DNA from: an uncultured bacterium | GTDB taxonomy: Bacteria > Patescibacteriota > Minisyncoccia > Phycocordibacterales > UBA9973 | Assembly: GCA_937903035.1 (NCBI GenBank) | Contig: CALCZP010000004.1 | Location: forward strand, 84,465-148,464 | Reading direction: 5' to 3' | Length of the DNA stretch: 64,000 nt | Part shown: positions 753 to 59,720 of the stretch, piece after piece | Numbering within the stretch: position 1 is the first letter of the stretch | Layout of the letters: every line of letters starts with the position of its first letter | Notes under the pieces: generated by a model | Told to the model about the DNA's origin: nothing | What the model saw: the letters and a program-made list of their open reading frames with translations, nothing else | Databases searched by the model: none | Made by a program: the position numbers and the translations under genes

Positions 753-1271
753 CTACTTCTCCAAATACTTTTGCACCTTTTCTATCTTTGGATCAATGAC
801 AAGTTGGCAGTATGGTGCATCACGGTGATTTTCATAGTAGTTCTGATGATAGTCTTCTGCAGGATAAAATATCACCGCTTCAGCAACCTGTGTAACAACA
901 ACCTTACCTTCACCAAGATGTTCTTGCGCTCGCTGGACCGCGAGATGCGCTTCTATTCGCATTTCCTCGTCGGTATAAAAGATTACTGACCGGTACTGCG
1001 TACCTACATCATTTCCCTGCCTATTAAGTGTTGTCGGGTCATGCGTTGCAAAGAATGCATCAAGTATCATACCGAGAGGTATCACCGTTTCGTCATAGAG
1101 TACTTCAATAACTTCAGCGTGACCTGTGGTACCTGTACAGACAGCCTCGTAAGTTGGATTGGACACGGTGCCACCCATATAGCCAGGCACGACCTCAGCG
1201 ACTCCGCGCAGATTGCGAAAGACTGCCTCCGTACACCAAAAACATCCACCTCCAAGAAATATTTTCTTCAT
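753..1271 (-). CDS. msrA: peptide methionine sulfoxide reductase MsrA
   Basis: 172 aa with the GGGCFWC catalytic motif near the N-terminus and MsrA-like conservation throughout (GHAEVIEVLYD, YHQNYY). Confidence 0.9.
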   Translation of the reverse strand: MKKIFLGGGCFWCTEAVFRNLRGVAEVVPGYMGGTVSNPTYEAVCTGTTGHAEVIEVLYDETVIPLGMILDAFFATHDPTTLNRQGNDVGTQYRSVIFYTDEEMRIEAHLAVQRAQEHLGEGKVVVTQVAEAVIFYPAEDYHQNYYENHRDAPYCQLVIDPKIEKVQKYLEK

Positions 1272-4460: not shown

Positions 4461-4805
4461 TTATTTCTTTTTGGTGTCACTAGTAGACTTTGCTGCTTTT
4501 GCTGCAGAAATTTCGGCTTCTTTTTTCTTCTGGTCGATGTCCTTTTGCATCTTACCACCATGGCGAGTGAATTTACGAGTTGGAGAGAATTCACCCAATC
4601 GATGACCTACCATGTCCTCGGTAACGAGCACTTCGATGTGCTGCTTGCCGTTGTGCACTCCAAAGGTAAATCCAACCATTTCTGGTGCGATTTGGCTGTC
4701 ACGTGACCATGTCTTGATAACCCCTGCTGAGAGAGGCTGTTTTCCTTCAATTTTCTTGAGGAGTTTTGGGTCAACGTATGGACCTTTAGAGAGTGATCGA
4801 GTCAT
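4461..4805 (-). CDS. rpsS: 30S ribosomal protein S19 with a Lys-rich C-terminal extension
   Basis: [20 protein letters not shown]...[18 protein letters not shown]19. Confidence 0.9.
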
Positions 4806-4885
4806 AACTAGAATAAAAAATGCCCGTTTTGAGCTCCGAGTATCTTAGCAAATTACAGCGCAATGTCAAATAAGATAATGACGAT

Positions 4886-4988
4886 TCGGAAATAGGGAGT
4901 AAAAAATGACTTACACAGGCCGACTGGGCCGAGTACAGCAATTTGCCAGCAGGCAAATATGCGTTCATTTTTTACTCCCTATTTCCGA
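4886..4988. repeat. perfect 24-bp inverted repeat (TCGGAAATAGGGAGTAAAAAATGA / TCATTTTTTACTCCCTATTTCCGA) enclosing a 55-nt spacer that contains two smaller hairpins
   Basis: Read directly: arms at 4886-4909 and 4965-4988. The spacer holds CGGCC-gactg-GGCCG and ATTTGCC-agca-GGCAAAT hairpins. Confidence 0.8.
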
Positions 4989-4997
4989 AAGGAATGA

Positions 4998-5396
4998 TTA
5001 TTTGCCAAGTAAAATAAGGATTTTTGGGAGAAAAATGACCAATCCCACTGCAACAGCTCCGATCACCGTCAGTAGTACCGCTCCAGCGGCCACATCCTTG
5101 GTGTCACGGGCATAAGGATGGAAGTCTGGACTCGTGAGGTCAATATCAATCTCAATCGCCGTATTGAAGCCCTCAGCGACGAGTACACTGGTAATAGCAA
5201 GAATGAGCAATCCCCACTCGGCCTCATTGATATTGAGGTAAAAGCCAAGCCCGATTGCAACGACTGTCGCAAGTCCATGCACCCATGCATTGTGCTGCGT
5301 TTTAAATATGACACTAATCCCCCGTATCGCATGTTTGAAACTTTGTGCTCGAGCAATGATTGAAAAGCGCTTTTTTTCTGAGAGTTTTGGTTGCAT
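4998..5396 (-). CDS. dgkA: diacylglycerol kinase (DgkA family) membrane protein
   Basis: 132 aa with three TM helices and the DgkA-like segment NAWVHGLATVVAIGLG...EGFNTAIE. Confidence 0.8.
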   Translation of the reverse strand: MQPKLSEKKRFSIIARAQSFKHAIRGISVIFKTQHNAWVHGLATVVAIGLGFYLNINEAEWGLLILAITSVLVAEGFNTAIEIDIDLTSPDFHPYARDTKDVAAGAVLLTVIGAVAVGLVIFLPKILILLGK

Positions 5397-5427
5397 AGAG
5401 AAAGTATAGCAAACAAAAATCCCGCCT

Positions 5428-5928
5428 TTATAAAAGACGGGGGCATGTTACTAACTGTTTGTACACTCTATCTTTCGTTCCATATGGCAGGTGCCATACA
5501 AAAGAAAATTGGAGTTGTCGTTTCATTTTGCGATGGTCAAGCATATAGAGCTCAACACTCCATTGTTTTTTCATATGATGATACCAACCATATCCATAGG
5601 TCATATAATTCTCATGAGTTGTACCGATTGCTTTGTAATATAAACCAACAGCAGGACCAGTGAACAATTCAGTATTATCGTTATCAGACCACCCTATCAG
5701 ATACTGAAAACCTGAATATGATGGAAAACCCCCATCAATACCAAACCGTTGATCAATAGAAGCCAAGTGGGTGAGATATTCACCCCACCGATACCCAATG
5801 CTTCCTGTTACGACACCACGAGCAGAGTCTTGTCTAAGATTTATTCCTCCACTTACTCGAATGACTATTTGCGAATGGGTACTAGTAGTACATACAAAAA
5901 AAGATATAAAGAACAATGACTTTTTCAT
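5428..5928 (-). CDS. hypothetical secreted beta-rich protein (signal peptide MKKSLFFISFFVCTTSTHS)
   Basis: N-terminal signal-like segment. The rest is Gly/Tyr/Trp-rich with alternating aromatics (YGYGWYHH). No family recognised. Start taken at the internal ATG. Confidence 0.45.
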   Translation of the reverse strand: MKKSLFFISFFVCTTSTHSQIVIRVSGGINLRQDSARGVVTGSIGYRWGEYLTHLASIDQRFGIDGGFPSYSGFQYLIGWSDNDNTELFTGPAVGLYYKAIGTTHENYMTYGYGWYHHMKKQWSVELYMLDHRKMKRQLQFSFVWHLPYGTKDRVYKQLVTCPRLL

Positions 5929-6047
5929 AGATTGTTTTTCTTTTACATTACATTTATTTTTTGTTTTGTCAATAGTATATACCTCCCTCTCATACAAACA
6001 AAAACCGCTCATCTGAGCGATTTTTGTAGAGTAAAAAAGTGAGGAGA

Positions 6048-8745: not shown

Positions 8746-9000
8746 ATGGGTTTTGAGAATTTTCCAAGTAATAATAGTGAAAAGATCGCGCAGATAACTT
8801 CAGAAGAAGTTTCTAAATATCTTAATATGCCAGTGGATAATGCTGAGCTTCAAGCATGGATGCAAGAAAAAGGAATAGATTTTGACAAGGGTGTTATTGA
8901 AATCGAAGTAGATGGAGAAAAAGCAGAAATGCAAACAGACAAAGAAGATTTTGGTACATTCAAATTAAAAAATAATAACGAGATAATTTCATCATCTTAG
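8746..9000 (+). CDS. hypothetical small acidic protein, opposite strand, inserted between rpsJ and rplC
   Basis: 84-aa ORF with an ATG start. It ends 7 bp before a strong bidirectional hairpin. No family recognised. Confidence 0.35.
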   Translation: MGFENFPSNNSEKIAQITSEEVSKYLNMPVDNAELQAWMQEKGIDFDKGVIEIEVDGEKAEMQTDKEDFGTFKLKNNNEIISSS

Positions 9001-9006
9001 TAAATC

Positions 9007-9048
9007 ACATACAGAAAAAGCCCCCGATCGGGGGCTTTTTCTGTATGT
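9007..9048. terminator. bidirectional rho-independent terminator ACATACAGAAAAAGCCCCCGATCGGGGGCTTTTTCTGTATGT (fully palindromic)
   Basis: Perfect 19-bp arms around a GATC centre with flanking A/T runs. It lies between the rpsJ stop (9052) and the 8746-9000 ORF stop. Confidence 0.75.
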
Positions 9049-9051
9049 GAT

Positions 9052-9390
9052 TTACATCATCTTAACGTCGATATCGACACCAGATGGCATTGAGAGGTTC
9101 GTGAGGGCCTCGATAACCTTTGGTGATGGATTCTCGATGTCGATGAGGCGCTTGTGCACTCTCATCTCAAACTGTTCACGTGAGTTCTTGTAGATGAACG
9201 GTGAACGGTTGACGGTGTATTTCTTGATCTCAGTTGGAAGTGGGATTGGACCACGGACAGCGGCATCATGTCTGATGGCGGTGTCGATGATCTGCTTCAC
9301 ACTCGCGTCCAAGATCTTGTTTTCGTAAGCGCGTACTCGAATGCGAAGCATTGATTGTACGTCGTCTTTCTTGGTTGTTTTTGTTGCCAT
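9052..9390 (-). CDS. rpsJ: 30S ribosomal protein S10
   Basis: RIRVRAYENKILDASVKQIIDTA...VRGPIPLPT...HKRLIDI, the classic S10. Confidence 0.9.
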   Translation of the reverse strand: MATKTTKKDDVQSMLRIRVRAYENKILDASVKQIIDTAIRHDAAVRGPIPLPTEIKKYTVNRSPFIYKNSREQFEMRVHKRLIDIENPSPKVIEALTNLSMPSGVDIDVKMM

Positions 9391-13444: not shown

Positions 13445-13595
13445 ATATATGTTTTGGGTGTTGTGTGATCTGTCTTGTAAATGGGGAATAAAAAAAGCGC
13501 CCGTACGCTTGCAAAACTATACTGTATATGTACCTTTTTCGCAATAAACTATTGTCTCTTGGTTTCCACCATGCTATGATACACACGTTTCACCT

Positions 13596-18490: not shown

Positions 18491-19664
18491 TTTTCACCGT
18501 TCGGAGTACTCCTTGATGGAGGACTTCAAGTGATATAGTTGATCCAACTGCTTTGGTTCGAACAATACTTGCAAAGTCATGTTTCTCATCAAGGAGTATA
18601 CCGTTCACCGATATAATAACATCGCCTTCTACAATACCTGCATTTGCTGCAGGTGAACCCGGCTGAACAGCAGGACTTCCATCAGGACCAGGTATCACTG
18701 CGACACCTGCTGTTGCTGTAATACTATACGCGCGCTTGATAGCAAGATTCAACGGCTGGTAGCGGATGCCGACAAACGGACGGACGATACTTCCTGTTTT
18801 TTTAATCGATGCGACAACTTCATTTGCACTTTTTGCAGGAACAGCAAAGCCAATTGATTGTGATCCTGATGCCATTGCAACATTCACACCAATAACTTCA
18901 CCTCGAAGATTTAATAGCGGCCCACCGGAGTTCCCCGGGTTAATGGCTGCATCAGTCTGAATCACCTTATCGAGAAATTCAACACTACCACCCCCACTTG
19001 CAGTGATTGAACGTGAAAGCCCAGATATAACACCAACTGAAATCGAGTTTTTAAATTCACCAAGCGCAAAACCAATCGCCACAACACTTTGTCCAAGATC
19101 AAGTTTCTCAGAGTCGCCAAATGGCAGCGCGACGAATCCTGAACCCTGCACCTTGAGCACTGCCAAGTCGTACACCGGATCACGATCAACAATAGTTGCT
19201 GGGTATCGTTTCCCATCCGTAGTAATAGCAACAAATGTCGCATTTGCACGATCAACAACATGGCGATTTGTCATAATAAGCCCATTTGATGATACAAAAA
19301 ATCCACTTCCTCCACCGGAGATGCGAGTCTTTTCACCAAGAAGCGCAGCAAGTCCCGTAGCGGGTACTGATACTTCAATAGAGACAACGCTCTCATTTAC
19401 TTTTGCAACAACTTCGGTCACGGTGAGGTCTTTTGGACCCTCAGGAACTACTGGCAACTCTTCAACAGTAGGAGCTATCACTTGATCAGCAATACTAGAC
19501 GTAGATATCGGAATATTCGAAAGGATGATTGCAACGATACGTGCCCGATAGTGCCAAACAGCTGCGCCCGCAATGGTAATCACCATTAGTGATGAGAACA
19601 TGCTAACACCAACTACTTTGAGCCAGTGTTTCATCTTTTTGTGCCGTTTCCAAAATTCTTTCAT
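18471..19664 (-). CDS. htrA: HtrA/DegP-family serine protease (trypsin-like plus PDZ), membrane anchored
   Basis: TNRHVV, DLAVLKV and GNSGGPL catalytic-triad contexts with a PDZ-like C-terminus. Start placed at the internal Met (MKEFWKRH) to avoid overlapping the upstream gene. Confidence 0.85.
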   Translation of the reverse strand: MKEFWKRHKKMKHWLKVVGVSMFSSLMVITIAGAAVWHYRARIVAIILSNIPISTSSIADQVIAPTVEELPVVPEGPKDLTVTEVVAKVNESVVSIEVSVPATGLAALLGEKTRISGGGSGFFVSSNGLIMTNRHVVDRANATFVAITTDGKRYPATIVDRDPVYDLAVLKVQGSGFVALPFGDSEKLDLGQSVVAIGFALGEFKNSISVGVISGLSRSITASGGGSVEFLDKVIQTDAAINPGNSGGPLLNLRGEVIGVNVAMASGSQSIGFAVPAKSANEVVASIKKTGSIVRPFVGIRYQPLNLAIKRAYSITATAGVAVIPGPDGSPAVQPGSPAANAGIVEGDVIISVNGILLDEKHDFASIVRTKAVGSTISLEVLHQGVLRTVKITLAKA

Positions 19665-19671
19665 GGGTAGA

Positions 19672-20478
19672 TTATAACAAATACCTCCCTTTTTCTTTTT
19701 GTATAAAATCTTCTTGTAGCAAATCTTCAAGTACTGATTCGATGGAATCTTTTTCTTTTTCCAAGATATTCACAAGCTGCACAACTGTCTTTGGGCCACT
19801 AATCAAAGCCTTCATAATACCTCCGCGAATCTGACGTCGAGATCCCTCAAATTTTGACTGCTTGATATACTGCTTGCTCTTGCGATGAACCTTACTACCC
19901 GTACTTTTGAGATAACTGCCGTAGTCCATAAGTGCCCAGTACCACGCTCGGGGATTTATCTTATCAACAGTTGCCTCAATACTAGGCATAAGCTCGGCAT
20001 CTGACACTGTTTCTCGAGTAGGAAAAAAATGGTGAATATACACCGTCCGAATATTAGTCTCAATTAACGCATCAGGTATATTATATGCAAATGCGGCGAC
20101 TGCGCGTGCAGTATACGGACCGATACCGGGAAGCGCGAGTAATCCCTCGATAGTTGTTGGAAATTTTCCTTTATGTTCACTGGTCACTACCTGTGCCATA
20201 TGGTGCAAAAATTTAGCACGGCGATTGTAGCCAAGTCCGCTCCATTCAATCAGTACATCACCAAGCGGCGCAGATGCGAGCTTTTGCACGGTTGGAAAAC
20301 GCTTCAAAAAAGACGTATACTTTTCAATCACGCGAGGCACTTGTGTCTGCTGGAGCATGATTTCTGAGACTACAATCCTGTATGGATCAGTCGTTTGACG
20401 CCATGGCAAGTCATGTCTTCCATATGACCTAAAGTAGGTGTATACGTCTTTAACGAATCTTTTTTGAGCGGCGTCCAT
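19672..20478 (-). CDS. HhH-GPD superfamily DNA glycosylase (endonuclease III / MutY-like, no Fe-S cysteine cluster seen)
   Basis: LPGIGPYTARAV helix-hairpin-helix followed by the conserved Asp region. The C-terminus lacks the CX6CX2CX5C motif. Confidence 0.7.
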   Translation of the reverse strand: MDAAQKRFVKDVYTYFRSYGRHDLPWRQTTDPYRIVVSEIMLQQTQVPRVIEKYTSFLKRFPTVQKLASAPLGDVLIEWSGLGYNRRAKFLHHMAQVVTSEHKGKFPTTIEGLLALPGIGPYTARAVAAFAYNIPDALIETNIRTVYIHHFFPTRETVSDAELMPSIEATVDKINPRAWYWALMDYGSYLKSTGSKVHRKSKQYIKQSKFEGSRRQIRGGIMKALISGPKTVVQLVNILEKEKDSIESVLEDLLQEDFIQKEKGRYLL

Positions 20479-24395: not shown

Positions 24396-24445
24396 GTCAA
24401 AAACACAAAATCCACCCTGGTTATAGGGTGGATTTTGTGTTTTTG
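24396..24445. terminator. perfect 22-bp inverted repeat TCAAAAACACAAAATCCACCCT-ggttat-AGGGTGGATTTTGTGTTTTTGA
   Basis: Read directly. It lies 10 bp downstream of the small membrane-protein gene and upstream of the pilin gene. Confidence 0.6.
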
Positions 24446-24454
24446 ACGAACGTA

Positions 24455-40352: not shown

Positions 40353-40490
40353 ATGGGAAAAAGAGATACGTCACTCGGCGCAAAAGTTAAATCAAAAGGA
40401 TCACACAAGACTGCAAAAAGACTTGCTGTAAAAAAAGAAATGCTCGCCAAGAAAGCAGCAAAAAAGATTCCTGCAAAGAAAAAGAAATAA
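40353..40490 (+). CDS. small Lys-rich basic protein (45 aa), not in the ORF track
   Basis: ATG at 40353, MGKRDTSLGAKVKSKGSHKTAKRLAVKKEMLAKKAAKKIPAKKKK, stop 2 nt before a strong terminator. Confidence 0.3.
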   Translation: MGKRDTSLGAKVKSKGSHKTAKRLAVKKEMLAKKAAKKIPAKKKK

Positions 40491-40491
40491 C

Positions 40492-40518
40492 AAAAAGCCC
40501 TCGATCGAGGGCTTTTTG
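40492..40518. terminator. hairpin AAAAAGCCCTCGATCGAGGGCTTTTT
   Basis: Palindrome with a GATC centre. It is a near-copy of the 9007-9048 hairpin core. Confidence 0.7.
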
Positions 40519-40522
40519 TTAT

Positions 40523-40939
40523 AACATTCTCTTCTTATGTTTCTATCGAAACATCCGCGAGGCAAATTCTTTTGCATGTGGAGTATTAAATTCGTCTTCT
40601 TGGTTGCCTTTTAAAGGGCAATCCGCGAAGCGAATTCGAGCTCTGTAAAGAGTAAGCTTCGCTTCCTTTTACAGACTCTAATTCGGCTGACTGTCACGGT
40701 TGTGAACTTGTAGGGTGAGACCGTTCAACACCTTTTGGAGTCCCTTCTACTCCTTATATGAGGCGTCTCGGTCTCAAGGCTTTTTTTACAAATGAAGCAA
40801 ACAAAGCGTTTTCTAACTGTCTCGGTCACTGTCTCATTTAGATTTTAATGCCTATTCTCCGCTTATTGTAGAATATGGATATTTTAGCGAAATGAGACAA
40901 AACGAGACACTTTGGAGCTTATTGAAATCATGTCTCGTT
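40523..40939. other. 417-bp noncoding region rich in direct and inverted repeats (candidate ncRNA, regulatory, or junction region)
   Basis: Direct repeats ATCCGCGA(G/A)GC(A/G)AATTC at 40552-69 and 40621-37, nested hairpins at 40603-20 and 40641-78, several GTCTC(G)-containing repeats, and IR pairs 40831-40/40891-900 and 40897-908/40931-42. Confidence 0.3.
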
Positions 40940-45492: not shown

Positions 45493-45513
45493 ATATACCC
45501 CCTAGGGGTATAT
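45493..45513. promoter_or_regulatory. candidate CsoR operator: near-perfect palindrome ATATACCCC-CTAG-GGGGTATAT
   Basis: GC-core inverted repeat 12 bp upstream of the csoR start. It resembles known CsoR operators (TACCC...GGGTA). Confidence 0.55.
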
Positions 45514-45560
45514 GTCAAATACATCAGTTAAATCAGGGGGGTGATATTGATAGTGTGAAT

Positions 45561-46925
45561 TTATATTCCGAAACTTTGAAGTTTGTTTTCTGGAGGTTTG
45601 TGCGTTCCATTCTTTATTGCTTCGGAAACTTTTCTGTATTCATCACCAAATTTCTTTCCAATCTTTTCAAACTCCGAAGGCTTCAGTTCTTTTGGACGAT
45701 TATATCGATACCAGCATCTGTATCGTATTGGCAGATCAGGATAATCTTTCATATTCACATAGGCGATATTCTCTATCTTTTCTGGTGGCTTATATTTATT
45801 CGCATTTGCAGGATTTTTTAGAATCATCATTTCTTTGAATGCCTCCTCGACATGCTTCCATGGTTGAGAGTTGTATCCATCTTCATCATCCAAGCTCATA
45901 CTGAAATCGCAATGACCATCATCTTGCCCAGGTATATACCAAATCTGTCCGTGTGCCCACATTGGAGCTGATATCTCAAAATCCGAAGCCTTGTCTCCTC
46001 CAGGATGTATTGACTCATCGTGTTTTTCTTCCATGTAGTAGTCGACGGATACAGTCGACATATCGAGCAAGTATTCGCGAGAAAAAATTGTATATAAACC
46101 GAATCTATCTGTGCCCGGAACACTCTTTTCCAAATCCTTGATTGATTTTGCGTCAGGATACCTTTGAGGCCAAAGTATTCGGTTACGATCGTCCAGAAGT
46201 GGATACGCTTTGAATAAGCCTGGCATTTCCCCATGCTTTATTCCTTTGTACAAAGTGATCATTATTGAACTTGGATGAAGCAGGTTTCCTAGAACAACAA
46301 TGTTTGTCTTCTCACTTCCGATAGACCAAATCTCTCCCATAAACCAATCATGAAAGAGACGTATCTGTTTGCCATCTTGGAATGATGTCATATCTTCCAT
46401 GTCATCACAGATGATGAGATCGGGACGATGATTGCGATACTTTAGTCCACGAATATTCTGTAACGCTCCGATGCACATGATTTTTGCTCCGTATTTCGGT
46501 ATCTCAATTGTAAACGCACCCCAATCTTCCTTGCTCGCTTGGAATGGACCAAGATCGTTTTTCAATAGCTCGTTCTCTTCAAGTTCTTGTTTGATGCTGT
46601 TGAAATGAGACTGTGACTGAACTCTGGTTTTAGACATGATTACTATAAACTTTTTCTGATGTTTTCCAAGAATACTCCACAGAGCATTAGAGAGGTTCAG
46701 AATGGTCGATTTTCCTGAACCTCGAAATGCCATGAACACGTTGAGCTTGTGTTGGTATTCTTCTGTAATGCGGAACATCTCCTTATGGAACCATGCGAAC
46801 TCGTACGTGATATGTCTCTGAAGATAGATACGGCAAAATGCCTCGTGATTTTCATATACGAGTGCTTTTCGTACGGCAACATCATTGATGATTGCCTGTT
46901 TAAGTTCAGGAGACAATTCTTTCAT
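45561..46925 (-). CDS. phage terminase large subunit-like ATPase/nuclease
   Basis: Walker A FRGSGKST, Walker B DLIICDDMED, and a C-terminal nuclease-like acidic region. Confidence 0.75.
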   Translation of the reverse strand: MKELSPELKQAIINDVAVRKALVYENHEAFCRIYLQRHITYEFAWFHKEMFRITEEYQHKLNVFMAFRGSGKSTILNLSNALWSILGKHQKKFIVIMSKTRVQSQSHFNSIKQELEENELLKNDLGPFQASKEDWGAFTIEIPKYGAKIMCIGALQNIRGLKYRNHRPDLIICDDMEDMTSFQDGKQIRLFHDWFMGEIWSIGSEKTNIVVLGNLLHPSSIMITLYKGIKHGEMPGLFKAYPLLDDRNRILWPQRYPDAKSIKDLEKSVPGTDRFGLYTIFSREYLLDMSTVSVDYYMEEKHDESIHPGGDKASDFEISAPMWAHGQIWYIPGQDDGHCDFSMSLDDEDGYNSQPWKHVEEAFKEMMILKNPANANKYKPPEKIENIAYVNMKDYPDLPIRYRCWYRYNRPKELKPSEFEKIGKKFGDEYRKVSEAIKNGTHKPPENKLQSFGI

Positions 46926-46927
46926 GG

Positions 46928-47314
46928 CTACTTAAAGTGAGATAGGGCCTCTTCGAGGAGTTCCTTTTGGTGCTGGTTAAGTTCGACTTTTTTCTGAGCA
47001 CGAATAAACATATCTTTCTTCTCCTCAGACATGTATGCTTTATGTCTGTTTCTGAGCCAGAATGCCACTGCTTGAAATTTCTTCTCTTTCAAGAGGGCGA
47101 CGAGCTGACTTTCAGATAGATCGTTTATATACTCCACACCATCGATCCTTGCGTTTTCAACATCGGTCTTGAAGTCATCGCTTTCTTCACACCAGCGGTA
47201 GAAAGTAGCTCTTGATATCCCGACTTTGGCACAAGCATGACTTGTGATTGGGACGGCACGTAGTTGTTCAAGCAGAAGTTCTTTCTGCTTCTTTATTGTT
47301 TTTACAGTAGCCAT
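46928..47314 (-). CDS. terminase small-subunit-like HTH protein
   Basis: HTH ACAKVGISRATFYRWCE. It is adjacent to and co-oriented with the large terminase. Start placed at the internal Met. Confidence 0.5.
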   Translation of the reverse strand: MATVKTIKKQKELLLEQLRAVPITSHACAKVGISRATFYRWCEESDDFKTDVENARIDGVEYINDLSESQLVALLKEKKFQAVAFWLRNRHKAYMSEEKKDMFIRAQKKVELNQHQKELLEEALSHFK

Positions 47315-47315
47315 A

Positions 47316-48638
47316 TTAGTTGATCTTCTTACGCTTTTTACCAGTCTCTTTCTCCCAGCGACGCATAATGACTTCGGCATAAACGTGTGATTTCTCCATA
47401 ACAAAGCATCTTCGACCCATCTTTATCGAAGCGATGAGAGTTGAACCAGAACCACCGAATGGCTCAAGGATGAGATTGTCTCTTTTGGTCAAAACTTTGA
47501 TGTATGGAATGAGAAGCTCAATCGGTTTTGTCCCGAAGATTATCTCTTGCCCTGATGATTTCTTATCTGCGGCTGGATGAGCAATGAAATCGGTAGGACA
47601 AATTTTCTTTCCTTTCTCATACTGCTCCCAGTGAGGTTTTCCTGCTGTGGCAAAGAGAGCATTCTCATACTCATTCTGAAAAATCGCATCTTCTTCTACT
47701 AGATTAAGAGGTGTGCTACCAGAGTTTCCAACCAAAGCGATATCTGTCTTGTTGAAGAATTTGTACTTAGACGAAAATCCCTGCATACGATTCGACACAT
47801 GCCACGTGATGGTGTTTCTATACTTCCAATGCTTCTCAAGAGCAGTCCAAATCGTCTTTAGATTTTTTGGATTCTCAAAGATGATGATTGAGAAGTCGGG
47901 CTTTTGCACTTTAGCAACATTTGCCATCCATAGATCCGAGAAGTTGTCCGGCAATACATCAGTCTCAAGATAGCGACGATTCTTCTTTGCTCCGAATCCA
48001 ACAGTTGGACCATCTTTACCTCGACCTTTTCCTTTGAGGTAATTAAGAATATATGGCGGGTCAGTGAGAACCATATCAGCTTTGTTTTCACCCATGAGTT
48101 TAATCATGTCAGCCTCAACAGTAGAGTCACCAATCATGATTCGAGAACCATCGAGGTCGTACACATCTCCTTTCTTTGCTTTGACTGTGATATCTAGCTT
48201 GTCGAGTTCCTTTTGGAGATCAAACTGTTCCTCATTTATTTCCGCAGGAAAAATATCGTCGATTTCCTCTGAGCTAAAACCGATATCTGTGAGAAGTGAC
48301 TCATCGAATTCAGCGAGGAGATCAAGATCAAACTCTCCTTGGTTTTTATTGAGTCGCAGGTTGAGTTCAGACTCCTTTTCAGGTGTGAGATTAACAAATA
48401 CGACAGGCATATTCTTGTACCCAAGCTCTTTGCAGACTTCAAGTCTGAAGTGACCGCCAACCACAACGTTCTTTCGGTCGGGATGGGAATTAACGATAAT
48501 GGGATCGACGTTGCCAAACCTCTTGATGCTCTCCGTGAGACTCTTCTTTTGTTCATCGCTCCACTTGCGTGGGTTCTTGTCGTTTGCGACAAGGCTGTCG
48601 ATTGAGATGTACTCAATCTTTAGATTTTCTTTATGCAT
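47316..48638 (-). CDS. ParB-like nuclease domain fused to an N6-adenine/N4-cytosine DNA methyltransferase
   Basis: N-terminal ParB/Srx motif (NPRKWSDEQKKSLTESIKRFGNVDPIIV) and an MTase with DPPY and EPFGGSGST. Confidence 0.85.
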   Translation of the reverse strand: MHKENLKIEYISIDSLVANDKNPRKWSDEQKKSLTESIKRFGNVDPIIVNSHPDRKNVVVGGHFRLEVCKELGYKNMPVVFVNLTPEKESELNLRLNKNQGEFDLDLLAEFDESLLTDIGFSSEEIDDIFPAEINEEQFDLQKELDKLDITVKAKKGDVYDLDGSRIMIGDSTVEADMIKLMGENKADMVLTDPPYILNYLKGKGRGKDGPTVGFGAKKNRRYLETDVLPDNFSDLWMANVAKVQKPDFSIIIFENPKNLKTIWTALEKHWKYRNTITWHVSNRMQGFSSKYKFFNKTDIALVGNSGSTPLNLVEEDAIFQNEYENALFATAGKPHWEQYEKGKKICPTDFIAHPAADKKSSGQEIIFGTKPIELLIPYIKVLTKRDNLILEPFGGSGSTLIASIKMGRRCFVMEKSHVYAEVIMRRWEKETGKKRKKIN

Positions 48639-49020
48639 ATACTTTGCTTTTTAATTAATTTCTAAAAAGCAAAAGACCATCTTTATCGTTAAGTTTCCTT
48701 AACTGCAAAGATGGTCTTTCGAGAAGCGGTGCACGACTCAAAAAACACTCTTAACTTTACAGTTAAAAGAAATTTCTTTGAGCAGTGTAGGAATATAACC
48801 TTCAGCATTTCCTACCTTAGTAGGGGTCTGCGAATCTATATCCAGCCGCTGTGAAGAATGATTGAAAGTGTAGAGAGTTCCTCCTAGTAGGAGGGTTTTC
48901 CCAGCCGTCAATCCGATATGAGGATGTCAATTGCTCTGAAAGTATTATCTACCTAACTAAACAAAAATACAAGACGATGTTTAGTTAAAGAATACATGAA
49001 AACCCTTTTTTAATTTGTCC

Positions 49021-49959
49021 TTATACTAAAAGGCTTTTCTTAAGTTCGGTCATTACAAAATCCTTAAATATAAGACAGTTATCCACAACTTGCTTAAGTA
49101 TGTATTCTTGTTCCTCAAACTCTTTTTCGAAAGAAACAGGTTCTACCTCCAATCTAAAACTTACTGATTTACCAGTCATGACCAATTCCATATTTGGAGG
49201 TAGCTTATTATAGTCTTGAAGTAATTCTTCATATTGAGAAGCCATGCCACTTAACTCAAGATCAACATATCCTTTCTCCATCTTATGAATAAGGCGTGTA
49301 TTTTTTAAAAGCCAGAAGGGACTGAAATACACAAAAGAAGATGCTGTCGGCTTTACTTTAGGTTGAGGCATATTTAATTCCTGTAATGTGCCTGATATAT
49401 ACAAATAATATTTCTTCCAAAACTCTGTAACAACCTCATCCTTTATAGCTTGATATCCTCTTCGTTCTTGTTCAATCGCAAGACGAAGAATTTCTGATTT
49501 GTACCATGATCGTAAAGAGGCGTCTTTAGAAAACCAAGTAAGTATTTCCTCATAAGAAACAGAGTACTCAAACTCACTTTTATTATCAATATAAGCCTTA
49601 GGAGCAACAAGAATGACCGCGGTCTCAATATTAGGTCCAGCAAGAAGTTCTGCACGCTTCATGTATCGATCATACTGAGCATCTTGAAACATAGCGTCAA
49701 CTTTGTTTTCAATTAGAAGAAACAATTTCTTTTGATTAAAAACAAATTCAGCTTGAATGTCAGTCTCTCCGAGCCCTGCGGTTGTCACACTTCGATATGC
49801 TTTTGAGAATATAAACTCTGGCTTACCAACAACTTTTAAAAATAACTTTTCTAAGCCTGTATTTGCATATAGTTCTTCTAATATCAATAAATCAATATCT
49901 CGTTCACGCACGGATTCGACTATCGGGAATGTTGCACCATTATTTTGAATTGCCTCCAT
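49021..49959 (-). CDS. protein with an N-terminal RecB/Cas4-like PD-(D/E)xK nuclease domain and a C-terminal domain of unknown function
   Basis: ERDIDLLILEE (motif I/II), ETDIQAEF, LLIENKVDA (ExK) and FQDAQY (QxxxY). Confidence 0.5.
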   Translation of the reverse strand: MEAIQNNGATFPIVESVRERDIDLLILEELYANTGLEKLFLKVVGKPEFIFSKAYRSVTTAGLGETDIQAEFVFNQKKLFLLIENKVDAMFQDAQYDRYMKRAELLAGPNIETAVILVAPKAYIDNKSEFEYSVSYEEILTWFSKDASLRSWYKSEILRLAIEQERRGYQAIKDEVVTEFWKKYYLYISGTLQELNMPQPKVKPTASSFVYFSPFWLLKNTRLIHKMEKGYVDLELSGMASQYEELLQDYNKLPPNMELVMTGKSVSFRLEVEPVSFEKEFEEQEYILKQVVDNCLIFKDFVMTELKKSLLV

Positions 49960-49964
49960 AATAG

Positions 49965-50867
49965 TTATTTCCTCCAGAAGATTAGCGACTTAAAGAACCC
50001 TGTGACTCGCTCTGTAAATGTTGGCTTTGGAGCTTCTCCCACTTTCGCAGGCGTAACTGGCTCTTCAACCTCGGTAGTTGTTGAGACCACAGGCTCAATC
50101 ACTTTTAGTGTCTCGACCTTTGGTTTCTGTTCAGCTTTTGGAGTAGGTTTAATTTCAGAAGCAGGAGTATTAACAACAACCTCTTTTACCTCCTCAATGA
50201 CTGGAGGGGTTGTTGTAGCTTTCTGTGATTTTTTAGCAAAGAAGTCAGGATACTTAGCTCGATAGAGTTGCTCAACTTTGTAAGCGTTCACTGGATTCAT
50301 TTTCTGAAGCAGTTTGAACTGAGCCACCTCTTGATCATCGGGGAGCGATTCAAGCCAATCGAAATATTCTCCGATGGTTATCTGCTTTTGTGGAGGCTGG
50401 ATTGCTTGCTCGTATACTTTGGTGTACTTGTCGTATTCGAGTTGCTGAATCTTGAGCTTGAGTTCGGCGATTTCAGCCTCTTTTGCTTTCATATCAATTT
50501 GAGATTGATATGAAGACCTTTGAGATTCTAGGTCAGCAATCTGTTTGGAGTACTTGGTATCAATTTCAGAAAGCTCCGCCTTGATTTGCTCCGTCAGACC
50601 ATAGGTGCCAGTGAGATAGTTTTTCTTGGCATCTCGTTCGTTCTTTAATTCAAGAATTCTGTTATCAATGTTTCCAATTGATGATGCAGAATTATTTTGC
50701 AATTGTGCCTCAAGTGATTTGAGACGATATTCTAAAGCTGACTTTTCCTCCTGCTGTTTGATGGATACATCTGCGGGCAGATAGTTATAGTCGGTTGCGT
50801 GTGCGATGGTTGCTTGGAATACAAATATTCCTAGCACGAACACGCATGTTCGTATGATTTTGTTCAT
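49965..50867 (-). CDS. secreted coiled-coil protein with a Pro/Thr/Lys-rich C-terminal region
   Basis: Signal peptide MNKIIRTCVFVLGIFVFQATIAHA, long heptad-like segments, and a PTPKAEQKPK tail. Confidence 0.5.
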   Translation of the reverse strand: MNKIIRTCVFVLGIFVFQATIAHATDYNYLPADVSIKQQEEKSALEYRLKSLEAQLQNNSASSIGNIDNRILELKNERDAKKNYLTGTYGLTEQIKAELSEIDTKYSKQIADLESQRSSYQSQIDMKAKEAEIAELKLKIQQLEYDKYTKVYEQAIQPPQKQITIGEYFDWLESLPDDQEVAQFKLLQKMNPVNAYKVEQLYRAKYPDFFAKKSQKATTTPPVIEEVKEVVVNTPASEIKPTPKAEQKPKVETLKVIEPVVSTTTEVEEPVTPAKVGEAPKPTFTERVTGFFKSLIFWRK

Positions 50868-50871
50868 AAGC

Positions 50872-51042
50872 CACTGTAGCGGTTTTAGCCTATTAACTGA
50901 TAATAGGCGGAGAATCTTGAGTCTTGCGACTGAAGACTCCTCGCCATTGTGATCCAACCTTTCGGTCAGACCCATATATCCTTTCGGATACACGACCGCT
51001 ACAGTGACTCTGACGAGGAGTCTTCAATACTGTAGCGGTTTT
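50872..51042. repeat. interleaved repeat system A1-B-A'-B'-A2 in the leader of the 49965-50867 gene
   Basis: A1 CACTGTAGCGGTTTT at 50872-86. B TGAAGACTCCTCG at 50931-43. A' ACCGCTACAGTG at 50995-51006. B' CGAGGAGTCTTCA at 51014-26. A2 ACTGTAGCGGTTTT at 51029-42. Confidence 0.75.
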
Positions 51043-51185
51043 GCTATTCCGACCATATCCTAGGAAACTAAGGGTTTTCTAGGGGTTAGGTCTTTGTTGT
51101 ACAAGAACATGATAGCAAATTTTTGGCTATCTTTCTAGACTTTAGCTTACATTTAGGGAGTTGCGAAGCCTGAGTTGTCGACAGT

Positions 51186-51731
51186 CTATTTTGTCTTCTT
51201 TTGCGAACCAAGACCTTTCATTAGATATTCCTTTTCATGACCATGGACCTTGTCCATAACAGCAAGTAAATCCTCAAAAATATTAAAAGCTTCTCGAAGG
51301 TGTTCACTGGCTTTGGTTTGAACTTTACTGTCATAACTTGCCTGATCTTTAATATCTTTCATTTCAGAGTAATCAACTAATTTATATTCTGCTTCAACAT
51401 TGTGCAAAACAAGATTCCTGCTCTTCTTGAATTTACTTATCCTCGAATAAAGTTTTTCATCTAGCACATCCTTGTTTTTCAAAACCAAAAAGATTGCCAT
51501 ACCATCGAAACCAACACGCCCTTTTATATTATGAAGATGGTTAATAAGAGATTGCGCTTCAAAAGAGTTGAAAATCTGTCTCAAGATTGATTCACCAGTA
51601 TTATCAATAATTGAATCAGCACCTGCGAATGCTTGAGCAAAATAACCCTTATTTGCTGGATCAAGCACGAACTTACCCCAATCTATTGAGATACCAGAAT
51701 ATTTACCATCCCATGTGACTCTCGATTCCAT
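51186..51731 (-). CDS. hypothetical protein, last gene of the CHAT operon
   Basis: 181 aa. Its start lies 2 nt from the stop of the 984-aa gene. Confidence 0.5.
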   Translation of the reverse strand: MESRVTWDGKYSGISIDWGKFVLDPANKGYFAQAFAGADSIIDNTGESILRQIFNSFEAQSLINHLHNIKGRVGFDGMAIFLVLKNKDVLDEKLYSRISKFKKSRNLVLHNVEAEYKLVDYSEMKDIKDQASYDSKVQTKASEHLREAFNIFEDLLAVMDKVHGHEKEYLMKGLGSQKKTK

Positions 51732-51733
51732 AA

Positions 51734-54676
51734 TTATTTGAGTACATCTTTTAGCCCCCAGAACATACTGCTTCCTTTCTCAATCAGGACGTTAATGAGA
51801 TCTTCGACCTTAGCCTTAAACGAAGGATTTTTGTAGATAATTTCTAGAGCTTCTTTAATTTCTCCATCAATACTGAATAAAGGTGCACGTCGATTCGTGT
51901 TCAACTCGTCTTCATTCAACAAATACTGCTTAATGACACCTAAGGTACTTTCAGGATCAATAGTTGCGAATATTTTCAAACGTCGAGTAAGCCCATAATC
52001 CCAATCAATATCACCTTTTGATTTCTCAAGAGTTATTGCAAGATTCTTGATGATGATTTTCTCATCAATTATCTCCTTATCAGGATTCACCCAAAATCCA
52101 AAACCAGAGAAGGCTTTCGGCTCAATCGGAATACCTGTTGAAATAATCCAATTCCAAAACTCTACAAGTTTATCCTTGCTTACATTGTTTTCCTTAAACC
52201 AATCATCGCCAGCCTGACTTCGAGTGATACAACTTCGACCAATAAAGGATACGAATTCGTAATGACGAGCTTCGTTTGGTGTCTTCCAAAATAGTTCAAA
52301 GAGTGGATCAGTAATTTTGAAATCAAAATGAGCATAAGCCAGTGCCAAATGGACAGCCAGTGTCTCATCAAGACCTTTCAAATATTTCCTATCTGGATAA
52401 ATATTTGGATTTAGCTTTATCGCATACTCGTAATAGCCACGAAGTTCATCAAATAACTCCTTGTACAGAGAACTTGCCAGGTATCCTTCCCAAGTAGCAA
52501 AATACAGTTTTTCTTTTCCTGATTCTTTAGGGAATATCTTCGATAGGAGTCCTTTAACAAAAGTAATGTCACGGAAGTAGAATGACGCAAGGAACTGACC
52601 AAGGGTGAATCGAACCGCATTCGATGTTTCTGTATCAAGAACCTGCTCAAACAAAACCTTAACTTCATTTGAAAGTGTCTTGTTGCTTTCGTTGTAAGCA
52701 AATTGGACAAAAGCTCGATACGCCTGTCCTCGAACGGAATTTATCGCAACATGAGCAGGTTCATTGGACTCACGCTTATCATCTTCAACATCAGGACTGC
52801 TCTTAATGGTAAAGAGATATTTGATGATGCTGAATATTTTTGCCTGATTATCTTTGAATGTATTTGAGTCCTTGATGGTTGCAAGTATCTCAAGAAGAAC
52901 ATCCGCTATAGATTTATGGACGGTTATCCAATCAGCAAGATAAACCCGCTCTTCCATTGGCTTAAACTCTTCTTTCTCACCCGATTGTCGAATGAGATCA
53001 AAGAAATTAATAACCTGTATGAATTGCTCATCTGTGAACGATTCCTTTGCCCTCAAACTGTCTTCAACTTGTCGCAGTATTGAGTAAACATAGTTTGGAG
53101 AAATAACACCCCTGTCAAAAAACTTATTAAGGTTTGATAGATAATCAGCCTTTCGAGCTTTAAAGTCTTCCTTAATGGCATCACCTAAGCCTTCGGGACC
53201 ACGAGGACTTAAGAAATCATCATTCTTATACTTTTCCTTCAACACCGCTGGAGATGCGTCAGTTTTCAAATGATCAATGAGAGCATCAATGGTCATTTCT
53301 GATGGATTAAATGGTGTTTTGTGATTCACAATACCTCCCATTCCGCCCATGACAGTAGGATGAGGAGTAATCTGACCATCTTCTAACAACTTTCCGAAGA
53401 TGGACTCAGCCTTTGTAATTTCTTCAGGAGTTAGGTACTTTTTTATATAAGTAAGTATCTCTAAACCGTCACGTTTCCTCCATTTTTCTTTATCAGCATC
53501 GTCTAGTTTTGCTCCGTAGTATTTAATAACATTTTCAACATATTCTCGTTGCTCGGTATCCTTATCTAGAGCGTTAAACCCAGCAATCAACCCCTGGTGA
53601 TATTCAGCTCCTGTATCAATCTCAAAGTAGCGTTCACCAACATTAAACACACGGAACAAGAATTCCTTTATCTCCGACTTAAACGCATCAGGACATCGTG
53701 TAATTGCATATAACTTAAGCCTCCAAGAGGTAAGAGCGTCGGGTAATGTGGCAATATTTTCTAAATAGATGCGACGAACCTCTGCGACATCATCACACTT
53801 ACCGCCAAGAATTATCTCAATGAGAGTTTTTATTGTTGCTATGAAATTCTGAATATCTTCTCGGAAATGAGACCTCTTGTCCGTATCTAATTGTAGTGTG
53901 AATACACTCACATCGAGTAGATAGAATGGCTCTGACTTGTCAAAGACGGTTCCGTCTTTTTCTACACCAATGTCAGTAATTTTTGTAAGGATTTCAGACA
54001 ACAACTTCAAAAACTTTTCCTTATCGGGATTGTTTTGATCAAGAATAAGTTCAAATATTCCAGTCTCGCTTACATCACCGAGATAGAATAACTTATCTGT
54101 TATTGAGAAACGCTCAATGTTGGCAAACTCTTCTTTATCCCTAACCGTAAGTACTACTCTAGCGAGATCGTAGATTGCCTCATAATCCTTTTCTTGAGCA
54201 AACTTCTCAGTCATCTTCTTGTATTCATATCCGGAACGACCAAAACGAGACATGAGTTTCAACCAGTTATCTGAATACATTTTTGGAAGAATCTTCTTTA
54301 TCTGAGCAACTGGCAAAAGACCAGTGATCCAGAAGAACCTGTCGATGACCTCAGGGTTGAAGGTATCTTTTGAAATTGGTGTTGAAAGAATTATCTCAGC
54401 GACTAATTCAGGTAGTTTTTCTGCCATTCGAGTAAGATACTCAAGTTCAGAAAGACGATATCCATATTTACTAGGATCTTCCGACTTCTTTTTTAATTCA
54501 TCAAAAAGACCGTTATCAAAAAACCACTTAAGCCAAGCTTCGTTTGCCTTCGAAAATAGATAGCGCTTTGAGTCTTCATTGCTTTCGATAAAATTTTTTG
54601 CAACTTCAATAGATGCAACTGATGGGCCAGCTGTTACGAATTCGTCTATTTTTTTGTGTATTTGAAGTTGGTTCAT
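51734..54676 (-). CDS. large (about 980 aa) predicted alpha-helical protein of unknown function, translationally coupled to the CHAT protease
   Basis: ATG (MNQLQIHKK) 4 nt after the CHAT stop. The protein is Leu/Lys/Glu-rich and helical. No NTPase motifs seen. Confidence 0.55.
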   Translation of the reverse strand: MNQLQIHKKIDEFVTAGPSVASIEVAKNFIESNEDSKRYLFSKANEAWLKWFFDNGLFDELKKKSEDPSKYGYRLSELEYLTRMAEKLPELVAEIILSTPISKDTFNPEVIDRFFWITGLLPVAQIKKILPKMYSDNWLKLMSRFGRSGYEYKKMTEKFAQEKDYEAIYDLARVVLTVRDKEEFANIERFSITDKLFYLGDVSETGIFELILDQNNPDKEKFLKLLSEILTKITDIGVEKDGTVFDKSEPFYLLDVSVFTLQLDTDKRSHFREDIQNFIATIKTLIEIILGGKCDDVAEVRRIYLENIATLPDALTSWRLKLYAITRCPDAFKSEIKEFLFRVFNVGERYFEIDTGAEYHQGLIAGFNALDKDTEQREYVENVIKYYGAKLDDADKEKWRKRDGLEILTYIKKYLTPEEITKAESIFGKLLEDGQITPHPTVMGGMGGIVNHKTPFNPSEMTIDALIDHLKTDASPAVLKEKYKNDDFLSPRGPEGLGDAIKEDFKARKADYLSNLNKFFDRGVISPNYVYSILRQVEDSLRAKESFTDEQFIQVINFFDLIRQSGEKEEFKPMEERVYLADWITVHKSIADVLLEILATIKDSNTFKDNQAKIFSIIKYLFTIKSSPDVEDDKRESNEPAHVAINSVRGQAYRAFVQFAYNESNKTLSNEVKVLFEQVLDTETSNAVRFTLGQFLASFYFRDITFVKGLLSKIFPKESGKEKLYFATWEGYLASSLYKELFDELRGYYEYAIKLNPNIYPDRKYLKGLDETLAVHLALAYAHFDFKITDPLFELFWKTPNEARHYEFVSFIGRSCITRSQAGDDWFKENNVSKDKLVEFWNWIISTGIPIEPKAFSGFGFWVNPDKEIIDEKIIIKNLAITLEKSKGDIDWDYGLTRRLKIFATIDPESTLGVIKQYLLNEDELNTNRRAPLFSIDGEIKEALEIIYKNPSFKAKVEDLINVLIEKGSSMFWGLKDVLK

Positions 54677-54680
54677 AATT

Positions 54681-55718: not shown

Positions 55719-55739
55719 AATTTACTAATAATTCAACGC

Positions 55740-56264: not shown

Positions 56265-56334
56265 ATAACGTGATTATCTCACAAAAACGCCCTTAAATCT
56301 AGGATATAAAGGTAAAAAATGATAAAATGAAATT

Positions 56335-57994: not shown

Positions 57995-58117
57995 TTATAA
58001 GTACATTTTAGCTTAAAAGACATAAAACCTGAATAAAATTTACCTAAACTTACCTACAGTTTATCTACTTCGGACGCTCTAGACTCCTAAGAGGTTCAGC
58101 GTCATCAATGTGTTTGT

Positions 58118-59443: not shown

Positions 59444-59454
59444 GCAAACAAAAA

Positions 59455-59478
59455 ACCACCCGAAGGGGTGATTTTTTG
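59455..59478. terminator. short hairpin CACCC-gaag-GGGTG plus T6 after the recombinase gene
   Basis: Read directly. Weak stem. Confidence 0.4.
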
Positions 59479-59618
59479 TTCTGGATACTGCGCTCAGCAG
59501 GTATGCAATTTACGGAATAGTATCGTGTGTTTTACCTTAGTTCGAGCCCATGACTGGTGCTCAGAACTTTTATTCCTAAACGGCGATTTTAGCCGTCTAG
59601 GTAGGTCTCACATGACTG

Positions 59619-59689: not shown

Positions 59690-59720
59690 ATATTGATCGT
59701 CTTGCGCCTCACTATACCTA

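Follow-up and report, generated by a model that had tools for sequence, protein, structure and literature searches.

A conserved T-shaped hairpin between dgkA and rpsS in a lineage of Patescibacteria, single-copy in the loci searched and tolerant of core inversion

The Patescibacteria, or candidate phyla radiation (CPR), have tiny genomes in which non-coding DNA is scarce and hardly any regulatory element has been characterised. In a 64,000-nt stretch of such a genome (contig CALCZP010000004.1 of assembly GCA_937903035.1, positions 84,465 to 148,464 of the forward strand; hereafter the window), a palindrome lies at positions 4885-4989, within the ribosomal-protein operon and between dgkA and rpsS. 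This palindrome is one copy of a lineage-specific T-shaped hairpin, built on a three-way junction, which occupies one inherited, fixed slot, bounded by the stop codon of dgkA and the -35 box of the rpsS promoter, in a clade of the Paceibacteria/Minisyncoccia (CPR), the group to which RplB homologues assign the organism. The element is selected, structural, tolerant of orientation and single-copy in the loci searched. As an intergenic element of about 105 nt, it adjoins the most highly expressed operon and carries the signs of selection in its covarying stems, invariant loops and slow change; that this conservation survives inversion is unexpected of a strand-specific RNA motif.

An inverted-repeat search gives the two arms as 4885-4909 and 4965-4989, a 25-nt inverted repeat with 100% complementarity and 55 nt between its halves, which confirms the perfect 24-bp repeat of the initial annotation and lengthens it by one base on each side. 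The arm 24-mer occurs in the window at the two arm positions and nowhere else, compared with 0.00 occurrences expected from shuffled sequence. The folding energy is about -57 kcal/mol on either strand, against -24 +/- 3.3 kcal/mol for dinucleotide shuffles (z = -9.7 and -10.3 for the two strands; 0 of 200 shuffles as stable). Both of the inner hairpins proposed earlier are found, one at 4941-4958 (ATTTGCC-AGCA-GGCAAAT) and the other at 4918-4930 (GGCC-GACTG-GGCC), the latter extending to 4913-4936. The parts of the element are as follows, with labels beginning with L standing for individual loci used in the comparison.

4965-4989, minus strand: 5' arm of the basal stem P1 on the gene-sense strand, TTCGGAAATAGGGAGTAAAAAATGA; half of the perfect 25-nt inverted repeat, species-specific in sequence, its pairing kept in all homologues.
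4910-4964, minus strand: conserved 55-nt core, ACGCATATTTGCCTGCTGGCAAATTGCTGTACTCGGCCCAGTCGGCCTGTGTAAG (minus strand); homologous cores in L029, L022, L035 and L036/L037.
4938-4962, minus strand: hairpin P2, a 7-bp stem (4941-4947 with 4952-4958) and the invariant loop UGCU.
4913-4936, minus strand: hairpin P3, a 4-bp stem GGCC/GGCC (4918-4921 with 4927-4930) and the loop CAGUC.
4885-4909, minus strand: 3' arm of P1, TCATTTTTTACTCCCTATTTCCGAA; ends 15 nt upstream of the -35 box.

P2 is extended by 2-3 bp with a bulged U, and P3 continues beyond a small internal loop into a lower stem, GUAC/GUGU. The cloverleaf-like fold of about 100 nt suggested earlier is thus a real three-way structure, backed by covariation in five species. 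The GGGAG-N8-ATG motif reported in the arms is also present, and the small open reading frames (ORFs) that it opens (4786-4968 on the minus strand and 4906-5115 on the plus strand) are artefacts of the palindrome, as had been supposed, because the arms of the homologues, the Shine-Dalgarno (SD) sequence and ATG included, are completely different; neither ORF is conserved in the homologous elements. The motif is not the local norm either, since most genes of the window lack a Shine-Dalgarno sequence.

The orthologous region was obtained from ten further species, fetched via their RplB proteins. Four of these carry the element at the orthologous dgkA-rpsS slot, making five species with the window, and a sixth has a decayed copy; the absence from all relatives that was to have spoken against the element is not observed. 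The four homologues are listed below.

L022: arms of 32 nt, 88% complementary; interior of 59 nt; core forward.
L029: arms of 22 nt, perfect (35 nt at 83%); interior of 55 nt; core forward.
L035: arms of about 20 nt; interior of 59 nt; core reversed.
L036-L045 (third species of the window's genus): arms of 22 nt, perfect; interior of 55 nt; core reversed.

Across the five species P1 is near-perfect and 20-32 bp long, and the core measures 55-59 nt. Arm sequences are unrelated between genera and the interiors are clearly homologous. A run of at least five A on the 5' arm of P1 stands opposite a T run on the 3' arm, and L029 has A7 and T7 on the two sides of P1, exactly as the canonical terminators of these genomes do. 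The element begins 0-15 nt from the dgkA stop codon, and the end of P1 is 14-18 nt from the -35 box in all five species. The pattern CATA-N5-CTGCTG-N5-TTGCT-N3-CTC-N4-CAGNC matches exactly the element-bearing loci; a core search pattern, CATANNNNNCTGCTGNNNNNTTGCTNNNCTCNNNNCAGNC, accompanies the covariance model R1, which was built from four species. In L013, the closest relative and a member of the window's genus, a weaker hairpin with 17-nt arms occupies the same place; its alignment to the core is reversed and covers the P3 half, P2 being absent, so that it is a decayed copy. L016, L023, L030 and L033 have short spacers with no element and no other terminator there, and in L033 the dgkA reading frame continues into the promoter region. 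L014 and L015 have a 137-aa ORF at the slot of the element.

The fold is supported by its pattern of substitution. In an alignment of six sequences 95.8% of the cells are paired and double changes are seen in 23 of the 32 pairs, which is equalled by 0 of 500 column shuffles; sliding the partner by 1-3 columns lowers the pairing to 39-48%. RNAalifold, with no structure supplied, returns the same T shape together with the lower P3 stem, with compensatory changes in 25 of 35 pairs, the lower P3 stem among them. Both sides have changed in half of the P2 pairs (5/10), where the stem variants AUUUGCC, AUCCGCC, AAAAAUC, AAAUCUC and AUUCGCC are each matched by the 3' strand, and all 4 pairs of the upper P3 stem covary (GGCC, GCGC, GUCU and ACCU, each with its partner). 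Among the scored pair cells (inner 18 bp of P1, P2 and upper P3), 183 of 192 are Watson-Crick and one is G-U; a comparison of G-U with A-C mismatches gave no preference for either the sense strand or the core-forward strand. Unpaired columns are invariant more often than paired columns of the core (15/21 versus 11/34; Fisher p = 0.006).

The rate of change points the same way. The window and L036 differ at 4 of 73 core positions (P <= 5e-7), compared with a proportion of synonymous differences (pS) of 0.29-0.50, the synonymous divergence of the two being 50% in dgkA and 29% in ribosomal-protein genes; for L022 and L035 the core differences number 9 in 59 positions, against a pS of 0.45. Almost all of the core differences in both pairs are compensated stem changes. 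By blastn, the 73-nt core with inner arms aligns to L036, reversed, at 94.5% identity, with flanking genes 91% identical. The core changes 5-10 times slower than synonymous sites. The element shows both the compensatory changes and the slow evolution of conserved structured nucleic-acid motifs and belongs among them, the covariation being drawn from five sampled lineages and of a kind that quasi-palindrome correction could mimic.

The core is reverse-complemented between sister species in two pairs, L035 versus L022 and the L036 group versus the window. The inner arms stay put across the flip, AAAAAATGA on the 5' side and TCATTTTTT on the other being identical in the window and L036, and the outer part of the 5' arm is unrelated between the two. 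At least two independent core inversions are thereby shown, with conservation retained. All 11 contigs of the window species, from many samples, carry the forward core in identical sequence, and all 9 contigs of the L036 species carry the reversed one; orientation is thus uniform within species, and flips must be rare rather than a form of phase variation. An inverton, which would show both orientations within a species, was rejected on these contig-level counts (11 forward, 9 reversed), and no small serine or tyrosine invertase is present in the 64-kb window. Population-level flipping was also considered from ERZ650292, where contigs break at the element (L012 1259-1308; L008 1-30), and was rejected: one contig end carries the Illumina adapter AGATCGGAAGAGCGTCGTGTAGGGAAAGAGTGT joined to the first arm bases, and the break is therefore an assembly artefact and not biological variation. 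A promoter within the core, suggested by an extended -10-like TGCTnTnCT (TGCTnnnnCT), was likewise discarded; three of the five species have G, G or C instead of the essential A at -11, and the -10-like bases pair in P3a.

The genes around the element all lie on the minus strand and follow one another as rplB (6887-6048), orf194 (6012-5428), dgkA, element, promoter, rpsS, rplV, rpsC and onward.

4998-5396, minus strand: dgkA (DAGK_prokar), 132 aa; Pfam PF01219 on an identical protein; its stop codon TAA (5000-4998) is 8 nt before P1.
4842-4869, minus strand: sigma70-type promoter of rpsS, TTGACA, 16 nt, TG-extended TAAGAT; -35 at 4869-4864, -10 at 4847-4842.
4461-4805, minus strand: rpsS, ribosomal protein S19, 114 aa.

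In every relative examined, that is in all ten further species, dgkA lies between rplB and rpsS, and it is therefore ancestral in the Paceibacteria/Minisyncoccia clade and no recent passenger. The dgkA-rpsS spacer varies from about 20 to 660 nt among species. The rpsS promoter has 10 of 12 consensus matches plus the extended TG, and TTGAC-N17-TGCTAAGAT is kept in all ten species examined, whether the element is present or not (consensus TTGAC(A/T)-N16-17-TG(C/A)TA(A/C)(G/T)AT). As this promoter separates the element from rpsS, normal transcription of rpsS begins downstream of the element. An autoregulatory leader of the rpsS-rplV-rpsC transcript, once proposed as a candidate role, is accordingly not supported; scans of the window, L029 and L022 gave no Rfam match to a described ribosomal-protein leader family.

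Model R1 finds a single copy in each locus, in every case in the dgkA-rpsS interval, and no second copy in about 290 kb comprising both strands of the window and the related loci. The arm 20-mer does not occur as an inverted repeat in the GTDB representative genomes, the JGI metagenomes or IMG/VR, and IMG/VR has neither the arms nor the core pattern. Single-arm chance matches number two in the GTDB representatives, within an Aliifodinibius coding sequence, and three in the JGI metagenomes, one of them in the 5' untranslated region (UTR) of a ybaB-like gene. The arm 20-mer TCGGAAATAGGGAGTAAAAA is in that case the SD-containing 5' UTR of a ybaB/ebfC-like gene on an unrelated metagenomic contig (L020 980-1002; SDBS01000039.1), a match with no inverted partner and at chance level for the size of the collection. 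No transposase and no REP-associated tyrosine transposase (RAYT) was found by Pfam among the approximately 60 ORFs of the window, whose sole recombinase is a large serine integrase (58118-59443, plus strand), 53 kb off and beside tRNA-Gln.

With variable arms, a conserved interior and a single copy in the sequence searched, the element does not behave as a miniature inverted-repeat transposable element (MITE). The suggestion that such a MITE had arrived with the non-ribosomal genes fails on these points and on the ancestral position of dgkA, and the search for further copies by which it was to be judged yielded one per locus. Two further candidates were rejected. An integron attC site does not fit, the arms lacking R''/R' motifs (RYYYAAC ... 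GTTRRRY) and the stem being perfect, without bulges, and there is no integron integrase in the window. The other long-spacer inverted repeats of the window (18502-18603 and 20296-20464) are unrelated and lie inside coding regions.

A short direct repeat brackets the segment.

5004-5018, minus strand: left copy, CTTATTTTACTTGGC; 15 nt, encodes the DgkA tail LILLG, 12/15 identical to 4860-4874.
4860-4874, minus strand: right copy, CTTATTTGACATTGC; contains the -35 box.

The two copies enclose the element with 14 nt of flank on one side and 10 nt on the other, and no direct repeat abuts the arms. Together with the L033 reading frame running into the promoter, this repeat hints that the segment may have arisen by insertion or duplication at a once-compact junction of dgkA and promoter; repeats of such quality are frequent in an AT-rich stretch, and the 15-nt repeat may be of chance origin.

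The T-shaped hairpin between dgkA and rpsS is previously undescribed and absent from Rfam. A scan of the whole window with Rfam 15 at the gathering threshold gave no match at the element, and E-value scans (to E <= 10) of the elements of the window, L029 and L022 returned unrelated chance hairpins of the microRNA-precursor type, so that the Rfam/Infernal check proposed earlier assigns it to no known family. A tRNA/tmRNA scan found nothing at the element locus, and the literature search found no description of a T-shaped dgkA-rpsS element. Hammerhead, twister and other ribozyme cores were rejected, as the junction sequences do not fit and Rfam is empty. Inspection by eye for dif/Xer sites, the DnaA box, attC and rrn-type boxA/boxB/boxC gave partial string resemblance and no more.

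Our favoured interpretation, with a probability of roughly 0.4, is that the element acts at the RNA level as a hairpin boundary which, by termination, processing or insulation, separates dgkA from the rpsS promoter. The structure would be active in either orientation and would divide a probably leaderless dgkA unit from the strong rpsS promoter. It would fold most likely in transcripts leaving dgkA, where a duplex of at least 20 bp with A/U tracts could halt RNA polymerase or make it pause, undergo cleavage as double-stranded RNA, or both; the 3' end of dgkA would thus be fixed and protected, and read-through kept off the rpsS promoter. The conserved bases of loops and junctions would imply a specific partner. 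Intramolecular template switching or recombination between the arms may be the process that keeps the arms complementary and flips the core, and would account for both the perfect arms and the core inversions; loop inversions in plastid 3' hairpins are known to come about in this way.

The proposal of a terminator or insulator after dgkA is thereby kept as a live reading, but a consensus terminator scan does not call the element, which with its AT-rich stem and 55-nt branched top departs from an intrinsic terminator. The canonical terminators of these genomes are likewise long A-tract/stem/T-tract palindromes. Bidirectional intrinsic terminators are seen in the window at 9000-9055, 24396-24447 and 40476-40533, with perfect or near-perfect arms of 23-29 nt in an A-tract/GC-stem/T-tract layout, and the genome seems to keep its terminator palindromes unusually long and exact.

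Several observations weigh against a boundary at the RNA level. Invariant loop bases are no requirement of a terminator or processing hairpin, and the sense RNA of the reversed copies shows complementary loops, which fits the DNA level better. One G-U among 192 pair cells is unusual for RNA under structural selection. A U tract directly after the full stem occurs just in L029, T5-6 lying inside the 3' arm elsewhere. L016, L023, L030 and L033 manage with neither element nor other terminator and the L013 copy has decayed, so that the function must be dispensable. The spacing to the -35 box is constant at 14-18 nt. The invariant loops, the scarce G-U pairs and this spacing are better fitted by a cruciform or protein-binding role in the DNA. 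The copy number, too, was sampled, over about 290 kb.

Such a role at the DNA level, which we consider somewhat unlikely, would have a cruciform or a single-stranded-DNA fold, its T-shaped arms and conserved loops bound by a protein, modulate the very active rpsS promoter, for example as a sink for negative supercoils generated upstream of it or as a docking site at about -50. Conservation independent of orientation would then be expected, an inverted core being the same cruciform rotated by 180 degrees; the nearly pure Watson-Crick pairing allows both strands to fold, loops and junctions are invariant, the distance from P1 to the -35 box varies less (14-18 nt) than that to the stop codon (0-15 nt), and the AT-rich tracts at the junction of core and arms would favour extrusion. 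However, no candidate binding protein is found among the window ORFs, the kinetics of extruding a cruciform around a 55-nt centre are unfavourable in vivo, and the species without the element retain the same promoter; we also know of no precedent for a cruciform element in ribosomal-protein operons, which counts against this role. It is improbable, though conceivable, that the element is a single-copy T-shaped DNA hairpin under purifying selection, alike in architecture and flip/flop behaviour to a parvoviral inverted terminal repeat, whose loops would be read by a structure-specific protein (candidates being an HUH-type nuclease, a recombinase, a primase-like factor or a cruciform binder) and which would control the promoter of the main ribosomal-protein operon via extrusion driven by supercoiling or mark the rplB-dgkA-rpsS slot as a hot spot of site-specific recombination.

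Equally improbable is a selfish, non-autonomous palindrome (MITE-like, REPIN-like, or a hairpin of an HUH or other structure-specific enzyme) inserted site-specifically, in either orientation, at the 3' end of dgkA or into a terminator palindrome already present, so that the arms would be host sequence and the core the mobile unit. The element is patchy among close relatives, occurs in both orientations with one decayed copy, and has a core far more similar between species than the flanks; its arms differ by species with a terminator-like A...T polarity, the imperfect direct repeat (12/15) brackets the segment in the window, and the rplB-dgkA-rpsS region is a hot spot of variable cargo. Against this, the element always sits in the same slot, at one copy per locus and none elsewhere in the sequence searched, IMG/VR contains neither arms nor core, the GTDB representatives and JGI metagenomes lack the arms as an inverted repeat, the 64-kb window has no transposase, RAYT or small invertase, and its many compensatory stem changes argue for long residence under constraint. 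Moreover, no element-free relative shows an empty terminator palindrome, and the variability of the cargo is uncorrelated with the element.

Less probable still is a strand-specific RNA, either a small RNA freed from the dgkA 3' UTR by a cut in P1 or a ribosomal-protein site feeding back on rpsS-rplV-rpsC upon read-through, with the forward orientation active and the reversed copies as recent losses of function. Covarying stems with conserved loops and junctions are the classical signature of an RNA motif, and a P1 of at least 20 bp is a typical substrate of a double-strand-specific RNase; the three most divergent intact copies (window, L029 and L022) are all forward, and the reversed L013 copy has lost P2 and is decaying. 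Yet the reversed L036 group and L035 are equally conserved, with all P2 and P3 pairs intact, the normal rpsS transcript, given the position of the conserved promoter, does not include the element, G-U pairs are nearly absent, and no Rfam relative appears even at E <= 10.

A non-functional by-product of inverted duplication or template switching near the rpsS promoter, kept complementary by quasi-palindrome correction, is very improbable: without any selection such correction could yield double changes and perfect Watson-Crick arms, several relatives do without the element, and its core weakly resembles the local promoter and leader (TTGCT...TACTCGG), but the core changes 5-10 times slower than synonymous sites and its loops and junctions are invariant between species with near-saturated synonymous sites, and quasi-palindrome correction cannot conserve unpaired bases.

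If the RNA-level boundary is the true role, the element would show the ancient S10 operon split into independently controlled units with a lipid-kinase gene embedded in it; if the DNA-level role is true, it would be a rare bacterial chromosomal case of a cruciform or T-hairpin under selection. Model R1 provides a handle for searching metagenomes and metatranscriptomes.

Other features of the region deserve mention. Between the rpsS promoter and rpsS lies a second, smaller hairpin.

4811-4834, minus strand: putative rpsS leader hairpin GCUC-AAAAC-GGGC (4822-4834), then AUUUUUUAUUC (4811-4821), before an SD-less start codon.

This hairpin (4-5 bp, GCUC-AAAAC-GRGC) is conserved in all relatives, its stem varying between U-G and U-A, and the run of U6-7 after it stops a few nucleotides before the rpsS start codon; hairpin and U run may themselves be an attenuator or ribosomal-protein regulatory site. 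The string TTTTTTAYTC occurs 6 times in the window, compared with 0.76 expected, one occurrence being upstream of fusA (13486-13495). Upstream of dgkA (5397-5445) a terminator-like hairpin is followed by TGCTATACT exactly 6 nt before the ATG, an arrangement seen in several species (L016 at about 5900-5920, L033 at about 5145-5165), and this suggests an extended -10 promoter that would produce a leaderless dgkA mRNA.

The slot between rplB and dgkA, after the rplB terminator, is a hypervariable cargo site among species with 77-99% RplB identity (window 5397-6047; L013 2767-6144; L022 4841-5374; L023 4847-6136; L029 4841-5539; L030 4841-6728). It holds orf194 in the window and, in other species, an SNF2-type helicase with a 172-aa ORF, pilin-like or PorV-like proteins or GDSL lipases, or it is empty, its content showing no correlation with whether the hairpin element is there. 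For orf194, the annotated ATG (6012) falls in the loop of the rplB terminator palindrome CAAAAATCGCTC-AGAT-GAGCGGTTTTTG (in the interval 5999-6047), a palindrome conserved in L013; the true start is probably the second Met (MKKSLFFISFF..., signal-peptide-like), and Pfam gives no match for the protein. The classical S10-spc operon is fragmented (window 753-1271 and 8746-9000; L001 10099-12345): an 84-aa plus-strand ORF lies between rpsJ and rplC, and msrA follows rplE in place of rpsN/rpsH, with a 716-aa TraG/VirD4-like coupling protein and an LTD-domain protein after it.

Separate from the hairpin element, an integrated mobile element is probable at about 45500-59700, beside tRNA-Gln (59618-59689). 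It includes the large serine recombinase (58118-59443), two N6/N4 DNA methylases, one at 57173-57994 and the other, which has a ParB-N domain, at 47316-48638, a CHAT-domain protein (54681-55718), a 980-aa protein without Pfam match and a LOOT RNA. The last is an Rfam match (RF03000) at 50951-51092 on the minus strand, with 47.4 bits against a gathering threshold of 46.4, and overlaps an inverted repeat (50931-50946 / 51011-51026) among ORFs without Pfam match.

The element shares individual features with several known systems. Like the bidirectional intrinsic terminators of the window (9000-9055, 24396-24447, 40476-40533, and 5999-6027 after rplB), it comes right after a stop codon, folds on both strands and has an A tract on its 5' arm and a T tract on its 3' arm, the L029 stem being followed by U7. 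Unlike them, it is topped by a conserved 55-nt two-hairpin junction instead of a loop of 3-8 nt, its stem is AT-rich and 20-32 bp long, its U tract lies inside the stem in four of five species and its unpaired bases are conserved. Inverted repeats in plastid 3' UTRs form hairpins that probably serve RNA 3'-end formation and stability rather than efficient termination, and the segment between their arms inverts among close relatives with the arms staying in place. The present element resembles them in being a stem-loop immediately 3' of a gene and in its loop inversions, but it is bacterial (CPR) and its inverted segment is a conserved, structured core under purifying selection where theirs is a free loop.

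With the inverted terminal repeat (ITR) of parvoviruses such as adeno-associated virus (AAV), the element has in common the A-B-B'-C-C'-A' layout, a length of about 105-125 nt and two orientations of the interior (flip/flop). It is, however, chromosomal and internal, with no Rep/HUH protein or nicking site identified and no sequence similarity, and the resemblance is architectural only. MITE families (such as the Correia or NEMIS elements of Neisseria) and repetitive extragenic palindromes (REP), including their mosaic (BIME) and REPIN forms, are multi-copy, with conserved termini and target-site duplications. The element is like them in its size class (about 100-150 nt), long arms and intergenic position and, as with Correia- and REP-type palindromes, in its presumed co-transcription with the flanking genes and as a possible substrate of RNase III or terminator, but it is single at one orthologous site, with variable arms and a conserved interior. 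Invertons, such as fimS and the invertible promoters of Bacteroides, also have a segment bracketed by inverted repeats near a gene start and known in both orientations; here, by contrast, the 55-nt interior has no credible promoter, the orientation is fixed per species (9-11 independent assemblies) and no invertase is nearby. By the tests that define these classes, the element does not qualify as a MITE or REP element, inverton, attC site, canonical terminator or ribosomal-protein leader, and in its behaviour it is closest to a 3' hairpin or a bidirectional terminator.

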